DNA from: Ascidiella aspersa
Lineage: Eukaryota
Assembly: GCA_963924565.1 (NCBI GenBank)
Contig: OZ004608.1
Location: 9,858,001-9,922,000, forward strand
Length of the DNA: 64,000 bases
Direction of reading: 5' to 3'
The notes below the pieces were generated by a model. That model saw only the letters and a list, made by a program, of their open reading frames with translations, was not told the origin of the DNA and did no database searches. This document shows, piece after piece, positions 34,757-55,954 of the stretch. Each line of letters opens with the position of its first letter. Positions within the stretch are counted from its first letter, which is position 1. The translations under genes were made by a program, and so were the position numbers.

Positions 34757-35329
34757 GTCTAAAATAAGTTTCTCGTCACCCCAGCGTAAATTAATATAAG
34801 GGAGTGATAACGAATCTCCTTCTTGCCATTAAAAATGTTTTACAAGCTGTAGTCTGTTCGCGTATGATAACATAACAAATTACTGTAATCTTCTCCGAAA
34901 TTGTGCGACTAACTTAATTGAAAAGAGATTGTAATTTGGGAAAGTAACCGCACAATGGAGTTGTATTGTGATTAGCAGATTAACGTCTTTTCACAGAAAA
35001 GGCTTAGTACGTGTTGTCGGTCGTCACTGGTTATTCAACGTTTCGGGCCAAAGAGACGCTTATTAAGGCGGAAGGCAGTGAGTAAACAACTGATATGTTC
35101 AATATTATTGCTGCAAAACGTATGTATTAAACGTATCGATCGAGAATAAAAAAGCAGTTCAACAAAAGGATGGTGAATATACCATTGTTTGTTTACTGCA
35201 AATTGTTTCTTGATTTATGAAATTTTATAAGCAGTAAGATAACCAAATCACGTTATTTTAGGTTAGCATTTTTCAATATATTAATTTATATGTTGTTGTT
35301 GCAGATAATACTTGTTATGGACTGAACTG

Positions 35330-36421
35330 ATGTTACAAAATATGGCATCAGAAACACCACCACTGCATGAAGACAGTCCTGTACACCCAGACAGCTTTGG
35401 CCGAAACTCCAGTTCTAACAGCACCCCCCGAACTCGACTCAGCAACACATCAGGCGAAATCACATTCGAGGGAAATTGGGAGGAGGATGATTTGGTGGCA
35501 CTGTCCGGTGTTGCCGGCCAAAGTTTTCACAAGATTCACACTGGCTCAAGAAGCAACAATTCTGCCGGTTATGACCAAGCTTACCGTCGGAAGTTGAAAG
35601 TTGATCGAGAGGAAAATTATCCTGACGATCTTGATTTGTCCGGGTCAGATTTGGACGGCATTATGACCCCGGAGGAACTGTTGACACCTGATGACATGGA
35701 TTCCTTCGTTGATTCGCCACAGCACAATTCTGGCATTGATTTGGAATGGGATAATGACACTCCAATTGTGAAACCAGTTGACAATACTGAGCCTGTTCCT
35801 GTCACAATTCATGGTTCTATGTGGAGGACTGTTGTAGTTGGGGACAACAATTACAAACTCGACTTAGCCGCAGTCAACCCATACCGACAAGTTTTATCGC
35901 ATGGGGGTTATTATGGTGAAGGATTGAATGCTATTGTTGTGTTCTCGGCTTGTTATTTACCGGATTCTGAAGAGAAAGAATACAGATATATTATGGACAA
36001 CTTGTTTTTGTACGTGGTCAGCACTTTGGAACTGTTAGTGGCTGAAGACTACATGATTGTGTTTTTTAACGGTGGCTGTCGCCGCCGAAACCTCCCACCT
36101 CTTAAGTGGTTAAAGAAGTGTTACCAAATGATTCACAGACGCTTGCGGAAAAACCTGAAGGAGCTAGTCGTAGTGCACCCCTCGTGGTACATTAGACTGC
36201 TGCTTGGCTTCTTCCGACCATTCATTAGTTCGAAATTCAGCAAAAAGCTGAAACTAGTTCGGAATTTGCATGAGCTTGCAGACGTTGTCCCAATTGAGAG
36301 TGTCACAGTGCCCGATGCTGTTCAGTTGTTTGACATGAAACTCCACAAGTTGCAAAAGGACAAAACGACAAATAGTGACTTGTCTGGTACCAGTGGCTCA
36401 TCCTCAGCTTCAGAAAGATAA
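35330..36421 (+). CDS. BNIP2/caytaxin (ATCAY)/PRUNE2-family BCH (CRAL-TRIO-like) protein; intronless CDS, ~363 aa
   Basis: Single ORF with first in-frame ATG at 35330 (alternative 35342). Contains LTPDD and the W-acidic motif DLEWDNDTP, then BCH motifs PYRQVLSHGGYYGEGLNAIVVFSACYLP and YQMIHRRLRKNLKELVVVHPSWYIR..RPFISSKFSKKL. Probable 5'UTR intron 35078-35304 (GTGAGT...TTGCAG). Confidence 0.93.
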   Translation: MLQNMASETPPLHEDSPVHPDSFGRNSSSNSTPRTRLSNTSGEITFEGNWEEDDLVALSGVAGQSFHKIHTGSRSNNSAGYDQAYRRKLKVDREENYPDDLDLSGSDLDGIMTPEELLTPDDMDSFVDSPQHNSGIDLEWDNDTPIVKPVDNTEPVPVTIHGSMWRTVVVGDNNYKLDLAAVNPYRQVLSHGGYYGEGLNAIVVFSACYLPDSEEKEYRYIMDNLFLYVVSTLELLVAEDYMIVFFNGGCRRRNLPPLKWLKKCYQMIHRRLRKNLKELVVVHPSWYIRLLLGFFRPFISSKFSKKLKLVRNLHELADVVPIESVTVPDAVQLFDMKLHKLQKDKTTNSDLSGTSGSSSASER

Positions 36422-36955: not shown

Positions 36956-37966
36956 TATATATACATACAACTTATTGTTTTATGAATGTTCTTGTTTTTC
37001 TTTTCTTGTAACATGGCAATACTTTTTTTTGTAATCTGATAAATGACCAGAAACAAATATGTTTAATAAACATATCATTTTTTTTAACAAAACTAATCTA
37101 TCTGGGTTGTTTGGAGAACAATACCATGAAGTCAAACTACTATAACTGCTCTGACGTTGCACTGTATGTTTACCACACATATCTTGTTTTGGAATGCATT
37201 GTATTTATACACAAGCAATTCAGCACAAGTGAGATTTATTTCAATTTAGTATTCACTGTTACCTTTTGCTTCCCGTGTACTTGTAGTTAGCCTTATAACA
37301 AATTAGAATTTTAATAAAAAAAAAGTATGTAAAAAGACTTGTATTTAAATAAAATGCTTAGAAGACGTATTTTGTCAATTAGAAGTTCTGCTCGAGTTGT
37401 ACAAATGTATTATTTAGATATGCACACAACACAATAAAGAAAAAAACCCAAACACCACACACTGTGATAAAGTTAAAATACAACTTCGCCATTTAAAATT
37501 CTTCCACCAGGAATTTTTGCTTAATGTTGCTAATTGAAGAAAATAATAAAAGTTTTGTTACATGAGTAAAACAACGGTCCTATAAAATTAGTCAAAACAC
37601 TAAACTAAATTTAAAATTAAAATAATGATTTTAGTTACTAGGACAGTAGCGTGTTTTATTAAATTCTTTGAGAGAAACATTTACTTAAATTAAAGTGTTG
37701 AAATACGATTGTTATTACTAACTGGCAAAGTAAATTGGCTCTTGTTAATAAAAAGCCCCCCAAAAAGAAGTTTTGGTATAACTAGTGCAAGTTGTGCCAT
37801 AGCAGTCAAACGTAACATTACAAGAAAATTAGTTTTTGGCTGAGGAGAGATCTTTTAGACCTCCCTGGTGCCCTAAACAAATAATTACAGGTTCTAACTC
37901 AAATATGGAGCAAAGCAAAAGTGATAAACAATAAGAGTTTAGTAAGTTCTTTATGTTGAAAGAGCC

Positions 37967-40900
37967 TTAAATGACAGTGGATTGGTTGCTTTCATCCTCT
38001 TCTTCTAAAAGAGCCTTAAATGGAAGTTTCTGATGGGTTGTGAGGAGAAAGTGGAGTCCATCTTCAGGGAGTTCTCCGTCGAAGGTCAAATAAATGGTCC
38101 ACTCAACAATGGTCTTTCTGCCAACCTTGCTCTTGGTCATCTCTAATTTGTTGATTTTCCTCACACCTTCGAGCTAAAACATAAAAGAAAATCAAAATCG
38201 AGTTGAAAATTAGTATAAAAAGTTAGTCCAGATCTACCATTATTTTCAGGACTGTGAGTAGAGACAGTTACACCAGTAATATATATAAACTGAAACAACT
38301 ATATTTAACTGAACAACTTAACACCAAAAAAAATCAGTGAGAAGACTCCTTAGTTGTGTCAAGCAATTGTTTAGCGAAAATAATGTTAAATGTTAGTAAT
38401 AAATGTATCTCTTAAGTAAGCTTTTCGTTGAATCTAGACCAGTAGTTCTCAACCTGTGGTAAGCCACCACTACTAGGGTCATAATGTGATATGCAAGCAG
38501 CTTGTAGGCCTAATGCAGAGTTTAGAAAAGTTAACACACATGTGATATTGAGACTGCCGTAAGTTATATGTTCTCTTTTTGGTATCAACCTATAACTTGA
38601 AATTCTCCACTAGCACTGTTCATTAAGTTAAATAATCATAAAATTTTTAGCAAAATGGTTTATTTGAAACCAAGTGGACTGTATAGAGACCCCAAAATGC
38701 CACCACTATGTGATGAGATCATGGACATAAAAATTGAGAACTATAAAGATCTGACTTACCTTAGACAGTTGCTCAGTAAGTTCCCCCTCTGTAATCCATT
38801 TTGTTTTGCAATTGGAAACCTCAATGTCCGATTCATGGAGTTTTAACACATGGACTGGGTCCTCAGATGCTGGTTCTTCAGTACTTTCTTCAGGTGCTCC
38901 AGTGGTTTCTACAGTTAATTTTGTTAAGAAGTTGGAATTAGTTGCAATACCTCTGGATAAAATAAAAAAGGTAAAAAATTAAAAAAAGTATTTTGTGACA
39001 TTTGGCACCTGACAAACATGTTCATACTCCAACTAAGTTTGTTTCTGTTGTTAAATATTTGTTTGATTTGAATAGGACATTTTGCCTCATCTAAATAGAA
39101 ATTATTTACTATACAAAATTGCTAATTAAACGCTATTCGAATGTGCTACCTGAAATGGTATAAGTAGCAGTTTACTGTCGAGTATTTTATACGACAATTC
39201 ATTTAACTGACTCCTGCTTTAAATAAACAATGTTTCAACAACTCTTTACAATTTTTTGCAGGCAAATTTAACCTATAGGTAATGTTGTAATAACGCCATA
39301 ACTAGCAACATTTTGACTGATGTCTGTTTTAATTAAAAACAATGAGACACTTTCATTAGTAAAATAATACCTTCTGTAAACAATTTTTAATTGTCAGTAT
39401 CCGTTTAGTTTTGCTAAATAAACAACTCTGTCAAGATAAAAAAAACATCTAATAATATTTTTTTCTGACTAAATAATCTGAATATTGGTTTGTTTTAAAA
39501 AGAAACTTCATCTGGTCAAAATGGTCAGAAAATTCTCATTAAGAACTCCTTATTATTTTTTAATCATATATTTCAATTAACTTATTGCGTAATGGACCAT
39601 TCAAGAATTCATACACAACTTTTGTACTCCTCTGGTATTCTGTGTTATACTAGTTTTAAAAGGAAGCTTCGATTAACTATAACTAACTAAACTTGCAATT
39701 TAAAAAAAAACAAAATGAAGACAGACTTGGAACACATATAAAAACATTTTGGTAGTAATATTTGCCCTGAATAAAAAAATGTCTTAAATTATGTTCAAAA
39801 TGTAACATTTAGAGAAGAAGCCAACGTGTATAACTGTCCATCAAAGCATCGTAGACAATACTAACTTTAAAAACTTCTAAAAACGGATTTACAAATAAAT
39901 TAATTCTTTACCCAAATATTGGACTATATTCTGACAATTCTAACAGATAAAAAATTTGAAATCACATTCAGATCCGTTCTCTCCTCCATACTATTGCCTC
40001 TGGTTTCTGCCATTAAAACTAAGTAATCCATTATTGTTTATTCAACTCGATCTATTTCGCTTTTTCTCTTAACCATTTTGACCAGTGAGTGAAGCCCTTC
40101 TTAAAAAAACAGCAAAAAAATCTCTTCCTTGAAATGCTCAACTGCCTAAACCTCCTGGAAAGCAAAACTGCAACCCACCAACACCTGTCATCGACTCATC
40201 AATGCCAGTCTCCTCTTTACTTTGGTCGTCTGTCTCAGCGGCTGCTGCCGTTTCTTCCATGAGCACCTGTCAGAAGCGAAACAAGCAATTAGCGGAGTCC
40301 GGCTACTGCCAACACACATTCCGCTAGAGGGCACCACACCCCCGTGCTGTGAAATAAGCCACGTGCCATGTTTTTGGGCAGATGCCTGGTTTCGTGCAGG
40401 GTTTTGTTGCTAAATGAAAATAAACTGAAAGCGATAAACAGAAAATTTTTAAAAGAATTACCTGCTTACCTAAAATAGTAGTTTAAATGTTGCTACAACA
40501 ATGTTACCAATAAGTAAATTCTATGTCCATTAATGTTCTAGACATCAAACAGAGGTTAAATTTGGAAAGGAATTGCATCACTATTTCCCATTATTAAGGC
40601 GGATAAAATCTGATTAATGTTTCCTTTGTGTGTAGTAATCCTGTTCTCACTGGCTGACGGACACAAACCTTTTCCAGTCGCTTGAGCAGCAAAGTTTTAA
40701 GCCCGGTGGATTTCAGGCCTCGCTTTTCCAGGTTTGCCTTCAGCTGATTCACTTTCATCTTTCGCAAGTTGTACAATGTGGCTTCGATGAAACCTAAAAA
40801 GTAGAAAACAAACAAGTTGACCAGGAAACCTCATATTCAATCTATATATATAGTTCTGCTAGAGTTTCTTCAGTACTTTAAAAACATGTACCTACAAAAA

Positions 40901-43900
40901 GTTGACCTAACTTTTTGGGTAGTTATTTGGCAAAATCAACACAGCATAACAATGCTAACTAGTAGTGGGATGTATCATCAATAGGTACAATGGTAAATGA
41001 CATATAAAAGTAAGGTAATAGTGGACAACACTAAAGGTGGTATCTTCAAGGAAATAAATAGACATAAAGCTTTTCATTGCATGCCAAGTGTAGGTAAAAA
41101 GTAAACAGAACGAGCATAAATTACCTTCAGACCCTTTCTTTGTTTCTGGCGTGATTAGAGCATCACTGTCAGAGTTATAATCCGACTGCTGGCATGCTTG
41201 GCCATTTTCCTGGGATTCTGTTTCAACCTTAAACATTATTGACAAACAAAATCAAAAAATCATGTTTTATGAACAAGTCAGTGATATTTCTGTTTTGAAA
41301 CATTACAAGCATGTTAATAAAAGTATTTTATAAGGTGCCTTTTTATAGTATTTAGCCAAAACACTTCTTCTGATCATTGTTACCATGATACAGCTCTACT
41401 GAACACTGTGCAAGCCATAAATTAGTCATTTTAAATAGAATCAATGCTAGAAATTACACCTTGACATTATTTTCCACAGCTGTATTAACCTCCTCAGTGT
41501 TCTCCTCTTTAACCTCTTCCAGTGTAACTTCTTCCTTTATTAGAGTAGGTTGAGATGGGTCGTAGGAATCTACAAAGCAAAGAATTTGAAATAGTTTTAA
41601 TAATTATAGCATTTCGGCCTTCTGACTCCTGAGTTTCCAATCATAGACTAAAGTGTGAACTGACTTCCTTCTGTGACCTTGTTTACAAGGTAGTGTGTAA
41701 ACATTGTATTGGCCAAAATTTAAGTCCATGATTTATCTTGTAATAGTAGGAACCTACCTTACCTAAACCTATATGTAAATATATATTAAAAACTTGAACA
41801 TTTTCAGAAGTAGGAAACTTTCCACAAGTAATAAAATGTTAATAAATTAAAAAATATTGATAAAAATATTTTCTTATAAAACACATCATTTTAAGTAAGA
41901 TTAAACTAATAACGGCTTTAACCATTAAACTTTACTTCCATCGTAATTCGTAACAACCTTTTTCACTGGTAGTGGGTTCTACATTTTGAGAAGCTGAAGA
42001 ATGATTTGTGGCATTTTTATCCAGAACTTCCACTTTGATTTGCTTGGCTGGAGGTGGTTGCAGAGATTTATCTTCTAGTTTGCTGTTTTCACCAGCGTTT
42101 GCAGCAGTTTCAGCCTGGCGTTTTTTCATTAGAGAGGCAACTTGTTTTTCCGATAGCCATTTCTACATTAAAAAAGGTTGGTAGCCATTCTATTATCGAC
42201 CAAAGACATACTTTTTGCCATTACAAACTGCCTAAATCCATTTTGTTATCATTTTACAAAATTTGTGTTACCAAAAAATATTAACCAAAATACTTGTGAC
42301 GTTTGTCACTTGTGATCCAGATAAGATGCTTACAGAAAATTTTTCGTAGTGATTCTTTGACTTGCAATGTGTTATTTTTGCTGAAACCTCAGAGTTGTAA
42401 AACTTGTGACAAATCTTGCAGAAGAAGCCGGACACAGCAATCACATACTTCTGGCCTAAAAAACAAGACGAACATCAAGAATTATGGAAAATAATTTCCC
42501 GGCAGTTAAAGTGTCCTGTAAGGCTGTTACCTAGAGCAACTTCTGGATCATAAGGTGGAAGATCAAAGTTTTCAATCACTTCTTCTTTTTCTTCGCCAGG
42601 ATTAAAAACTGCATCCTCACCCTTTAATAAAAACAAAAGTTACAAGTACACATTAAAACGTTGGGAATTATTGCAAAAAATGCCACTCCGAATGCAATTT
42701 TGGCAAGCTTTTTATCTAAAAATCTACCAAGATAAAACAACTGGCCTTAGCACTGCATGTAGGTTTAAAATTGGCATTTTTTAATGCAAGTGGTTGAGCT
42801 TTTTTTCCAAAATATAGGGTACACTAAATCTAACAGTACTGACTAATGAACACCTGCAATAGACTTTACTCTGTCACCACTTCAGTTGTGGTAAAACTAT
42901 CAATGGGAACAATGTTTGGTCCACAGTGTAATACGCATGAACTTTGGACATATTTGGTTTAAGTGCCGATCTGGATACACATGTTTGGCCTGCCAGTTTA
43001 AAAGGTTGCACAATGCACACACCTGCACTACAGTGAGATGTTGTGCAAAAGATAAATTAATGTGACTTATAGGACTTAAATTGCTAAAAAATGTGAATGA
43101 CTTTGACACGGCTTAGATAATTTTAAAACTACTTGTTCACCACACTGCTAAAAAATAATACATCATACTTTTCCATTTGTCGGATCCAATTTCTGAACTT
43201 CGGCGACTGGGGGGACAGGAACTAAAAATAAATTTGTACAAAGACATGTAAGGTCAAAATCATAAGATCATAGAAGTTAAACTTAAAATTAGACTTACGT
43301 TTTGCTGGTGGAGCTTGAGTAGGGGCTGGCAGCGCATTATGAATCTGTTTTGGGGGAGAAGGACGCCTCATTGGACCTGGAGGACCTTTTTAAATATTGA
43401 GGCAACGTTTTCAAACTTAGATAATAACATATATACAGACTTGTTAATCATTTCCCACAAGCAAATTACTTTTTATGTGTCATGACAAACATCCGTAATG
43501 TTAGTACCTAAGCTCGTACAGAAACAGGTAGCATATTTCGAATGTTTTAAATAATTCTTTGCTTATTTTTAACATGGTAAAGAAAGCCTAATCAGGGTTG
43601 TTCCTAAGCAAAAATTTACACTCGCCAGTCGGGAGAGCGGCTATCCATCACCACTCGCCCGGACAAAATATCACTCGCCAAAATTTGCTGGTACGCTGTC
43701 TGCAAATTTCCATCCTAGCGCGGCCATTTCTTCTTGGATTATCGTTATTCTGGCTTGTGGTTTTTATACAGAAACATTAGTTTTTATAAAAGTCTAGTCG
43801 TTTATTTCCATGCACAGATGAACAAATTAATGACCCATAAAGCAGTTGACGCCTAAAACAATGTTTTTTAGCGAACACTGACAATTTAGTAGCCACGGCC

Positions 43901-46900
43901 TGCCTGTTTACCATTTTTCTAAAAAACCTCGCGCTCTCTTTTTTTGTATTCTGTTTTTTCTGTGCTTGAAGGACGTCTTAGCGCAGGTTGTTTAACGCCA
44001 CATATTGCCTAGCACTATAGTTACTGGTTTAACAGCAAATAATGTCAAATAATTGTAAATTTACATTCATTCGAAAAACATGCACCAGAGGTTATGTGCT
44101 GCGCGACGCCCTATAGTGGGACGTTTCAATTTTCCAAGGGCGTCCGCAAATGTTTCCACTTATGCCTTTACATAATTGCGATATAAAATATTCACAAACA
44201 GTTGTTTTTTAAGCTTTGTCTTGGTTGACCGCTCTGAACTTTAAAAATATCGCAAAAACATACTTACGTAGACTAATTGCTAATTCTCAGCTGTAGTTGC
44301 ACAAGTAGGCGATATTTTCGGTCCCTCAAAACATCAAAAAAAAAACACTGCTTACAAATATTATTATAAGACATTTGCATTCAAACTTATTGTTAGCAAA
44401 AACTGCAGCAATTGCTCTTAATTTCCTAATAAAAACAATTATAAAAATACAAAAAAAAATAGAATTATTATCCTGGGTACATCTCAAGTCCAATAAACTT
44501 TTCCAAAGGCGTCAACGACTGGGTTAAAACAACGACTGGGTTCATTTAAAAATTAACCATGTTTAAGTTAAACGATAAACCTTATAACTATTTGCCACTG
44601 CAGCAATAACGTCTTTGATTGTTTGCCGGTAAACAAATTTTTTTAAACAGGACAAAGAGTCTTTATTACGAGCTTCGAACGTAACTTCAACATTAACCTT
44701 ATTATTTGTGTAGTGTTGAAGGTATTTGCGTCTTAGTGTTTAGGGAAATAACTGGCGCTAAGTAATATTTCGCTTAGTAGTGGTGCTTAACACAAGTCGT
44801 CCTACACCAACTAATTAAATTTCTCGCCGGAGCCTCTCGCCAGTCGGGCGAGTGGGTGTCAATCAGCACTCGCCGGGAGCAATTTGCACTCGCATTGGCG
44901 AGCGGGCGAGTGTTTAAGGCCAACCCTGCTAATGAATTAAAATATGCTACCTACTTCCATATGGGCTTTAATATTTGTTCTATGCTTAACTACAGCCCAT
45001 AGACTAGGGTTCTCAAACTTTTTTCTTAAGTGGCCCATTTACGTTGCAAAAAAATTCTGTGGCCCAATACATTTTTTATGAAAGACAAACTGTAAAATAG
45101 GTTTAGAACAAAACACAGCAGAACATATTTCAAAACAGATTATTTATTCAACCGTGCATAAGTGAGATACTTGCGGCTGAACAATGAATTTACATTCCTT
45201 TTTAATTCTTCCCTAAGCCATTATTCCTGTAAAATTAAATATCGTGACACAATGAAACTAAATCTAGCTTTTTTAAATTGGTCTGTGGCCCACCTCAAAT
45301 GTTCTTATGGCCCACTGGTTGAGAACCGCTGCCCTAGACATTGTGCTCCTAAATTTGCAATGATATTTTTAATTATCATAATATGTTTTCCTCATTAACT
45401 TCATAAGCACTGTTTCCACAAAATTTCTAACAAAAATACAATACAAAAAATTCTGTTACCTGGACGTGGTGGCTCCCATCGTCTATCAAATGAACCAGGA
45501 GGAGGAAGTCCCCACCTTGGAGGAGACTGCCTACGTGGAGGCGGACCCCTGAACCTGTCCCACTCAGGGGGTGGAGGACCCCAAGATCTCGGAGGACTGC
45601 GACCACGGGGAATGTAATGGGGTGGAGGAGGACTTCTTCGAACCCAATGCGGAGGCGGACTCCGCTCTCTTTTTCTCCATTCAGGTGGAGGTGGATGGTA
45701 TCCATGAGGAGGTGGAGATCTTCTTCGAAAATCCCAAGGACTAGGTGGTCTTTCCCTTCTGGGGCTTGGGCTTCTGGGTCTATGCAGTGGAGGGTAATTT
45801 AGTGGGCTCGGAGCTCTTATTGGAGATCTTCTGCCCGACTGTGGCCTGTCGTTGTGGGGACTTGGCATTTTCTGAGGAGGACTCCTCGAACGCTTTGGTG
45901 AATAGGAGCGGGTCGGCGGGGCTCTTGGGGGGCTTATTCCACGAGGTGGACTGCCTCTGGGTGGGCTACGGCTGCGATAGTAATCACCCCACTTGTTTCT
46001 GTCATCACGACCTGGTTATGTTTTGCACATGATTATCAAGCGAACACAAAATGTTAAAAACAACAAAATGAAGTAGGAATAATAAATACCTGGAGATCTT
46101 CTATCTGAACTCTTAGGCATTGGAGGGGGCCCAGCTGCAGAGCCTATAATAAAGTAATGAGAAAAGAGCAGCAATTTATTTACAAATTATAAATAAGGTG
46201 CAATAAAAAAAATAAAACTTAAATAGCCTATTTAATACACATTTACAATAGGGACTTATTGTGCTGACATGCCTTTACAATATTAGTTAACAAAACCTTG
46301 TTAATGGCTGAATGTAGATTAATAGCTGAATGTAAATTAATAGCTGAAAACGACATCTACAACTTTTGAATTTCTTTAAAGAACATATTTTAGGCTTAAA
46401 AATCATTCTATTCACCTTGGGAGATATACCATGATCCAGATCTCGGTGGTGAACGACTCATATCTTCGAAGAACACTTGTTCATTAGTTTCTACAATACA
46501 AAGAGGCCCGATATCTGTTGAATCACTGCCGTTTGGAGTCTGTTCTGGAAGCAAGATTTAACTGTGAGAGGACAACTGCATATACCAGCAAACCCAATCA
46601 GTTTGAATATAAAACTCTACTCTGAGAACTGTCTATTTTTTTATTAAATGTCCATAACTATACTAAGTGATCCTATTTTCCTATGAAAGCACCTTCAACC
46701 TAACTTTCTACACAAAAAATCAACTGCTATTGTTATTCTATAGTTGCACACTAACTTACAATATGTCAAACTAAAGATAAGCCATGAAAACCAATCTGAA
46801 TAAAAAATGTTATAAATAATGCTGCAGAACTGGTTATAGGTTGAAAACTTCTGTTTAAGATTTAGTTGACCTCACAGGGACATATACTTACTTATGGCCT

Positions 46901-49727: not shown

Positions 49728-51060
49728 TTGTACATAGGATAGGTGTTAGTATGTATAAATTGTAGAGATTAAATAACAGAATGTTAGTTAAAGAATTCTA
49801 ATTGGTTAAAACGCTTTAGAGTTCTAGATAGACATTTAGGATCTTTTCTCTATTTTCCGTAAAATAATTTCAAGTAGGATACATTATGAAGGGGCTCGCT
49901 TTGAAGTTATAGAAAGCCAACGTTCTTTAAATAACATAATCCTCATATGTTAGAACATATTTAAGGGTCATATTAGACTTACTTAAAAAAAACATAGAGG
50001 ACACAAAAAACATTAACGTTCACATCCTAATTGGAAACAAAATTGGCCAAAGAAGCCAAAAGGTAAACCTCTGCCTCAATCATCACACATTCTCCAGTTT
50101 TTCTCCTTATGCAGTAAAAATGCAAGTCCACTTCCATTCCAATTTTTTATTCCCATAACAAGGTCGCTGAACTACGTTGTCCAAAAAAAGCGATTTCCAT
50201 AAACTCTTGCGTGTATTAGAATAGAAAGTAAAAGGCATCAAAGGGGACAACTATGCCGAACGCTGTTTGTTAATTTAAGTCGGGGCCGTGGTAAAATTGC
50301 ACTTGCGTTCTCTACACTACACTTTGATGGTGCGACAACACGCATAAGAAACGATTGGCATTTCTATAGATAAACCATCAGGTTGCTCATAATTACTTGT
50401 AAAAAAGGCTTGCAATGCGCGCCGACGCCCGGCCCGAAATTTACAATAAATATTTTCGGGGGCGTTTGGCAACAACGAGAGGCAGCGTCAACCGATTTCT
50501 TAGAACCGCAAAAAAACGGGGGCCAAGAAATTTTGGTCGCACACCCTACGAACAACAACCAACCTGTAACGCCTCGGTATAAATCTATGTACAAGAGAAA
50601 CGAACGGTGCCGACCAAATTTTGACACGGGGAGATCGTATTAGAGAATTTGTGGGCGGGTGCACGCTACTACGCGCACACAAAATCACACAAGGTTTAAA
50701 GGCGACGCGAAACGTGGACAAGGTAATAAAAAACACCGCTTTAGTTATTTTACGCAAACGCAGCAACGACACGACAGACAAGGGTGACACTGACCCCCGA
50801 GAGAGAGGGGGCAGTACCTCATCCTTTAACAGGCGCGCGTGCGCGTAAACACACACACACTCGCTGCCGGCCGCTAACACAATAAATTTTGTCGGCAAAT
50901 CCGAATCAAAGGATAAAAAAACGACGACGGTTCGCCTAGTGCTGATATCAATGTTGTTGTTTTTTGGTGATTTCGCCTGCGCCGCAAAAAAGCAGCAGCA
51001 AGCAAAAAATTCCAGCACAGAGGACTGCATCGAAGGAAAGGAGAGAGGCGGGACTCCGTA

Positions 51061-55954
<4,894 letters not shown>

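Follow-up and report, generated by a model that had tools for sequence, protein, structure and literature searches.

Gene architecture and splicing of the C-terminal exons

In a 64,000-nucleotide stretch of the Ascidiella aspersa genome (contig OZ004608.1 of assembly GCA_963924565.1, positions 9,858,001 to 9,922,000; hereafter the window, with positions counted from its first letter), we observed a minus-strand gene coding for a protein with N-terminal Arg/Ser/Pro-rich (RS/Pro-rich) repeats, a Matrin/U1-type zinc finger, a SAP domain and, at the C-terminus, a domain encoded by its last two exons, for which a Pfam search returned no match. An earlier note on this DNA had likened the latter domain to the RNA recognition motif (RRM)-like domain that precedes the CCHC zinc knuckles in the first open reading frame product (ORF1) of long interspersed nuclear elements (LINEs) of the I/jockey group. 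The peptides that it quoted are indeed encoded by 38908-38760 and 38173-37967, exons with canonical GT-AG ends. In RNA run X4, which was selected by its species label and of which about 6% was read, the joint between 38760 and 38173 is spanned by 9 reads with 7 starts. The spliceosomal intron that had been held to split the domain is a 586-nt, phase-0, GT-AG intron (38174-38759) cutting it after the predicted helix 1. The domain exons are also spliced in frame to the SAP exon (40793-40669) via an 88-nt exon coding for an acidic linker (40266-40179), with 4 reads joining the SAP exon to the 88-nt exon and 6 reads with 4 starts joining the latter to 38908. RNA joints connect every exon from 43299 downward, and the joined exons form one open frame of 446 codons ending at the stop codon at 37969-37967.

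Correcting the earlier note, we place the beginning of the domain near 38858, preceded by an acidic linker (38908-38859). It spans about 95 residues, the first part (38760-38858) comprising predicted strand 1, a long conserved loop and helix 1, and the second (37994-38173) comprising predicted strands 2 and 3, a loop replacing helix 2, and two short C-terminal strands. The coding part of the last exon runs from 38173 to the stop codon; the CCHC knuckles are absent, as had been noted, and an acidic tail closes the protein here and in the orthologues. A 15-nt direct repeat (38022-38008 and 37973-37959, minus strand) brackets this tail, with the stop codon lying in the second copy. In the 3' untranslated region, 32 nt at 37911-37944 are skipped in 4 RNA reads with non-canonical ends, which is probably a deletion allele.

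A direct joint from the SAP exon to 38908, omitting the 88-nt exon, is seen in 4 reads with 2 starts, against the 6 reads of the inclusion joint. Whereas inclusion keeps the frame into the C-terminal domain, skipping shifts it onto a stop at 38845, 86 nt ahead of the last junction, with loss of the domain; the skip form is possibly coupled to nonsense-mediated decay or a domain-less isoform. The domain is retained in all six isoform records that were checked.

Conservation of the domain across ascidians

With the zinc-finger exon as query, we recovered full-length relatives in five cases (Clavelina, Styela, Phallusia, Ciona intestinalis and a further record); C. savignyi came in through a profile of the C-terminal domain, which brings the named ascidian species with orthologues to five. 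Labeled in their sources as uncharacterised, SRRM1-like or 'Matrin-type domain-containing protein', the orthologues share the RS/Pro-rich N-terminus, the finger, the SAP domain and the C-terminal domain, apart from one shorter record without the RS/Pro-rich N-terminus. Mean amino acid identity among them is 0.83 for the finger, 0.76 for the SAP domain, 0.51 for the C-terminal domain and 0.31 for both linkers. Invariant within the domain are the motifs ESD.E, N.K..W, V[ED]W and [ST]HQ, all on the predicted surface. An HMMER search of 1.84 billion representative sequences returned 17 matches at E<=0.001, all orthologue-like (15 of them without a named source), with 43-56% identity to the Phallusia row over the aligned part; many of them represent exon fragments and start or end at the position of the domain's intron. 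The same search recovered no ORF1. A word-index search with the last exon gave no match, sequence searches of the PDB with the exon and two profiles gave none at E<=10, and feature searches gave either nothing or only phage rows scoring below 0.8.

The domain occurs in one copy in the genome, where no host paralogue of it was found. Its single copy, in-frame splicing and conservation across species are features expected of a domesticated, transposon-derived exon. As the orthologues in five named ascidian species and the further records keep it, the domain is more than a chance feature; it is a real, conserved, single-copy, spliced and unannotated domain.

Predicted fold

The AlphaFold2 model of the domain displays one helix and five strands, in the same order as in the modeled pre-knuckle domain of a Tx1-type ORF1; the domain is predicted to be RRM- or ferredoxin-like, with the second helix absent. 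The top Foldseek match is the RRM-like domain of UPF3, and it is not significant (E 0.06, TM-score 0.47, 11% identity); against viral models Foldseek returned nothing at E<=0.001. In UPF3, this atypical RRM has a protein, UPF2, as its binding partner. The solved L1 ORF1p RRM was absent from every list of the top 50 folds, both for the domain and for the ORF1 control. Neither PF00076 nor any other RRM family was matched in Pfam searches with 7 and 21 domain rows, and the aromatic consensus of RNP1 and RNP2 is not evident in the alignment. Given this lack of the RNP aromatic pattern and the retention of the invariant surface motifs, the domain appears more likely, judging from sequence, to bind a protein partner than to bind RNA sequence-specifically.

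Profile comparison with LINE ORF1 proteins

Type I LINE ORF1p, as described in PMC4120745, carries one or more RRMs directly before CCHC knuckles and is typical of the I, Jockey, R1 and Tad1 clades. We assembled a comparison set by scanning prokaryote assemblies for the knuckle motif, keeping the 12 of 35 motif loci that had a long ORF1-like frame; an endonuclease lies downstream of ORF1 in 9 of these 12. Among 19 later places, 6 new ORF1s were added for an 18-member set and 5 for a trimmed 17-member set, one having an internal stop. We term these ORF1s I-group-like, a label based on their motifs; their pre-knuckle domains show the pattern given in the earlier note. Most of these LINE ORF1 frames have an endonuclease behind them; their presence in bacterial assemblies, several of which are of animal symbionts, is likely to reflect host contamination.

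In hhalign comparisons, the domain profile matched the 12 ORF1s at E 0.13 (21 rows) or 0.24 (8 rows) without context pseudocounts and at 0.044 with them. The match strengthened to 0.0039 with 18 ORF1s (0.0085 for the 8-row full-length profile, a score reached by none of 300 column shuffles) and to 0.00063 with the 17 trimmed ORF1s, where the HH probability is 28% over 49 columns. A smaller query gave 0.00079, and a set of 8 divergent ORF1s 0.0048. The register is constant in every comparison, beginning at helix 1 and ending at the F...P that follows strand 3, and the invariant F and P of the ORF1s align with the F/Y-G-x-x-P of the domain. Weaker scores were returned by the controls, namely the first, upstream RRM of those ORF1s (0.25), Tx1/L1-type ORF1s (0.08 and 0.28) and a reverse transcriptase/endonuclease decoy (0.34 and 0.17). 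I-group against Tx1-type ORF1s gave E 0.064.

Several searches were negative. The Pfam models PRE_C2HC, RBD_ZCCHC3_2nd and DUF4283 found nothing above cut-off in the genome, a blank that is uninformative because Pfam also fails to name real ORF1 domains. The LINEs examined in the genome carry only Tx1/L1-type ORF1s, which do not match the domain, but the control between two ORF1 groups failed as well; 79 metagenome reverse transcriptase loci yielded no usable ORF1. Knuckle-bearing Tx1/L1-like ORF1s cluster elsewhere in the genome, on C7 at about 14.2-14.8 Mb and C3 at about 5.2-5.4 Mb, some in tandem and some with an intact ORF2.

Origin of the domain

Because it has neither a knuckle nor an ORF2, the domain is not a Type I ORF1p, and the remaining claim is one of descent. 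The two are alike in the weak profile match from helix 1 to strand 3 with the following F...P and in the predicted one-helix, RRM-like order of elements, as modeled for a Tx1-type ORF1. The domain differs in being single-copy, intron-split and fused to host domains, in carrying motifs unseen in ORF1s together with a long conserved loop, and in fitting solved RRMs less well than an ORF1 model does. In line with the earlier note, none of 11 LINE protein queries matched the window at E<=0.01, and no ORF2 was found nearby. We suggest that an ORF1 origin is the leading, if unproven, reading: that the domain of the last two exons goes back to an I-group LINE ORF1, whose pre-knuckle RRM was captured prior to the split of the ascidian orders, is a tentative view to which we would give nearly an even chance.

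Several observations weigh against this descent. With the 8-row profile and no context pseudocounts, 61 of 200 shuffles scored as high as the real profile, and column shuffles are themselves a lenient null, since they lose amphipathic periodicity. The HH probability is low and just 49 of about 95 columns are aligned, with strand 1 and the last strands lying outside. The E-values are single-pair values, not significant over about 10^4-10^5 families, and they overstate the case because the pattern was one chosen among many families. Single-sequence hidden Markov model (HMM) scores are within noise, the domain HMM recovered no ORF1 in 11 genomes, 10 of which contain them, and the large HMMER search was equally blank. 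Moreover, solved RRMs are matched far less well by the domain model than by the modeled ORF1 domain. Of the likeness claimed in the earlier note, the shared register and pairwise E-values of 6e-4 to 5e-3 stand beside a low probability and the negative HMMER results; of the proposed capture of a retrotransposon domain by a host gene, the single copy, splicing and conservation held, while descent from ORF1 was not established.

A distinct, if lesser, possibility is that the domain is a host RRM without helix 2, for example of the SAFB/Acinus layout, the Matrin-3 family or a UPF3/ARS2-type, diverged in ascidians beyond recognition, its likeness to ORF1 reflecting the periodicity shared by RRMs. 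Our protein shares a SAP domain with hnRNPUL1, SAFB and Acinus, nearest among solved structures to that of hnRNPUL1, and as in SAFB and Acinus this is succeeded by an acidic linker and then by a domain of RRM-like type; it differs in that SAP sits close to its C-terminus and in that no match to the RRMs of those proteins is detectable in the domain behind it. Against a host origin, 27 canonical host RRMs (from 30, with 3 near-duplicates removed and the UPF3, ARS2 and Acinus types not included) gave E 0.12 in the run in which the I-group ORF1s gave 0.044, and the same host profile reached 0.13 against the larger ORF1 set; no Pfam RRM matched, and a donor paralogue was not found. A better match to a host RRM family, which the earlier note had named as refuting its proposal, was not seen among canonical RRMs. 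We consider it unlikely that we are dealing with a ferredoxin-like module of some other kind (HMA-, ACT- or Rep-like), or with one from a horizontally acquired or unassigned source, unrelated to RRMs and ORF1. That the two exons stem from a recent repeat fragment with no function, or from an annotation joined in error, is highly improbable: the frame-shifting skip form lacking the domain and the fact that 3 of 4 read variants checked in the two exons alter a residue would accord with it, but the RNA joints, the single copy, the roughly 51% identity across ascidian orthologues and the presence of the domain in all checked isoform records oppose it, and conservation and splicing together rule it out.

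Under the ORF1 origin, exonisation of a LINE copy would have taken place in the ascidian stem, where a host Matrin-type zinc-finger/SAP gene received it at its 3' end. The captured piece would then have shed the knuckles and ORF2, acquired an intron and become fixed; what is observed is a constitutive-looking, conserved domain that terminates an RS-finger-SAP protein. A fuller scenario, in which an I-group ORF1 RRM was joined to a Matrin-finger/SAP protein, became constitutive, and can be removed by a switch consisting of the frame-shifting skip of the preceding 88-nt exon, is plausible, if somewhat less likely than not.

The remainder of the protein and its genomic surroundings

The SAP exon (40669-40793) scores 33.1 bits with Pfam PF02037 (cut-off 23.9), a domain also present in 5 of 5 orthologues, and its nearest solved relative is hnRNPUL1/E1B-AP5 (E 7.5e-5). 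Three RNA-joined linker exons (42162-41958, 41569-41460 and 41227-41125) separate it from the C2H2 finger exon (42334-42455), which matches Pfam zf-U1 weakly and below threshold (E 0.006; 16.7 bits against a cut-off of 22). Three further RNA-joined exons, at about 43387-43299, 43221-43169 and 42621-42531, precede the finger. The N-terminal repeats lie at 45460-46461, their exon limits being inferred from sequence and tblastn, and the start codon is probably at 46461; 12 loose RNA read ends at 43387 run on into the 45460 side. Very high-copy repeats occupy the intron at about 43400-45400 (contig depths in two runs adding up to 10^4-10^5).

The Matrin-type finger proteins MATR3, RBM20, ZNF638 and CIZ1 define a family layout that our protein shares in its Matrin/U1-type finger and RS/Pro-rich region; it differs in that the orthologues lack a Pfam RRM before the finger and carry a SAP and an unnamed domain after it. 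As RS/Pro-rich regions contact RNA-processing partners, Matrin fingers RNA and SAP domains chromatin DNA, the whole protein is likely, by analogy with these domains, to be a nuclear RNA/chromatin scaffold. Further Matrin-type finger genes in the genome lie at C7:24224890-24224985 (finger 50% identical), where an upstream exon is RRM-like by eye with no Pfam match, and at C1:25099193.

Convergent with the gene, an unbroken frame of 370 codons (35309-36421, plus strand) codes for a BNIP2 and CRAL_TRIO_2 protein; RNA reads of the two genes on opposite strands meet near 37215-37429. Upstream on the minus strand, at about 51060-51890, lie 3' exons with an apparent likeness to Sec61 alpha.

General considerations

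ORF1 co-option has reportedly occurred in a fungal effector family, according to one study. According to PMC12129022, few LINE fusion proteins are known, and the cases covered there are of vertebrate L1: Lyosin, an isoform of MYL4, three other fusions, and L1TD1. As in these, selection would here preserve an ORF1-derived part within a host gene or as one; theirs, however, are vertebrate L1 parts (coiled coil, RRM and C-terminal domain) that were detected by sequence similarity to L1, whereas ours would have a knuckle-type I-group donor, an invertebrate chordate host and a constitutive C-terminal piece of borderline homology. Our literature searches, which reached few subscription papers, found no publication on this gene or domain. 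If the proposed descent is true, the domain would represent a chordate's co-option of an ORF1 from outside L1, fixed across ascidian orders, would extend such co-option to another LINE group, and would imply that captures can decay to the limit of detection and gain introns, so that many may be missed. Even if it is host-derived, it remains an unnamed, predicted well-folded and apparently ascidian-restricted domain on a nuclear-scaffold-like protein, with Ciona offering a tractable model animal.
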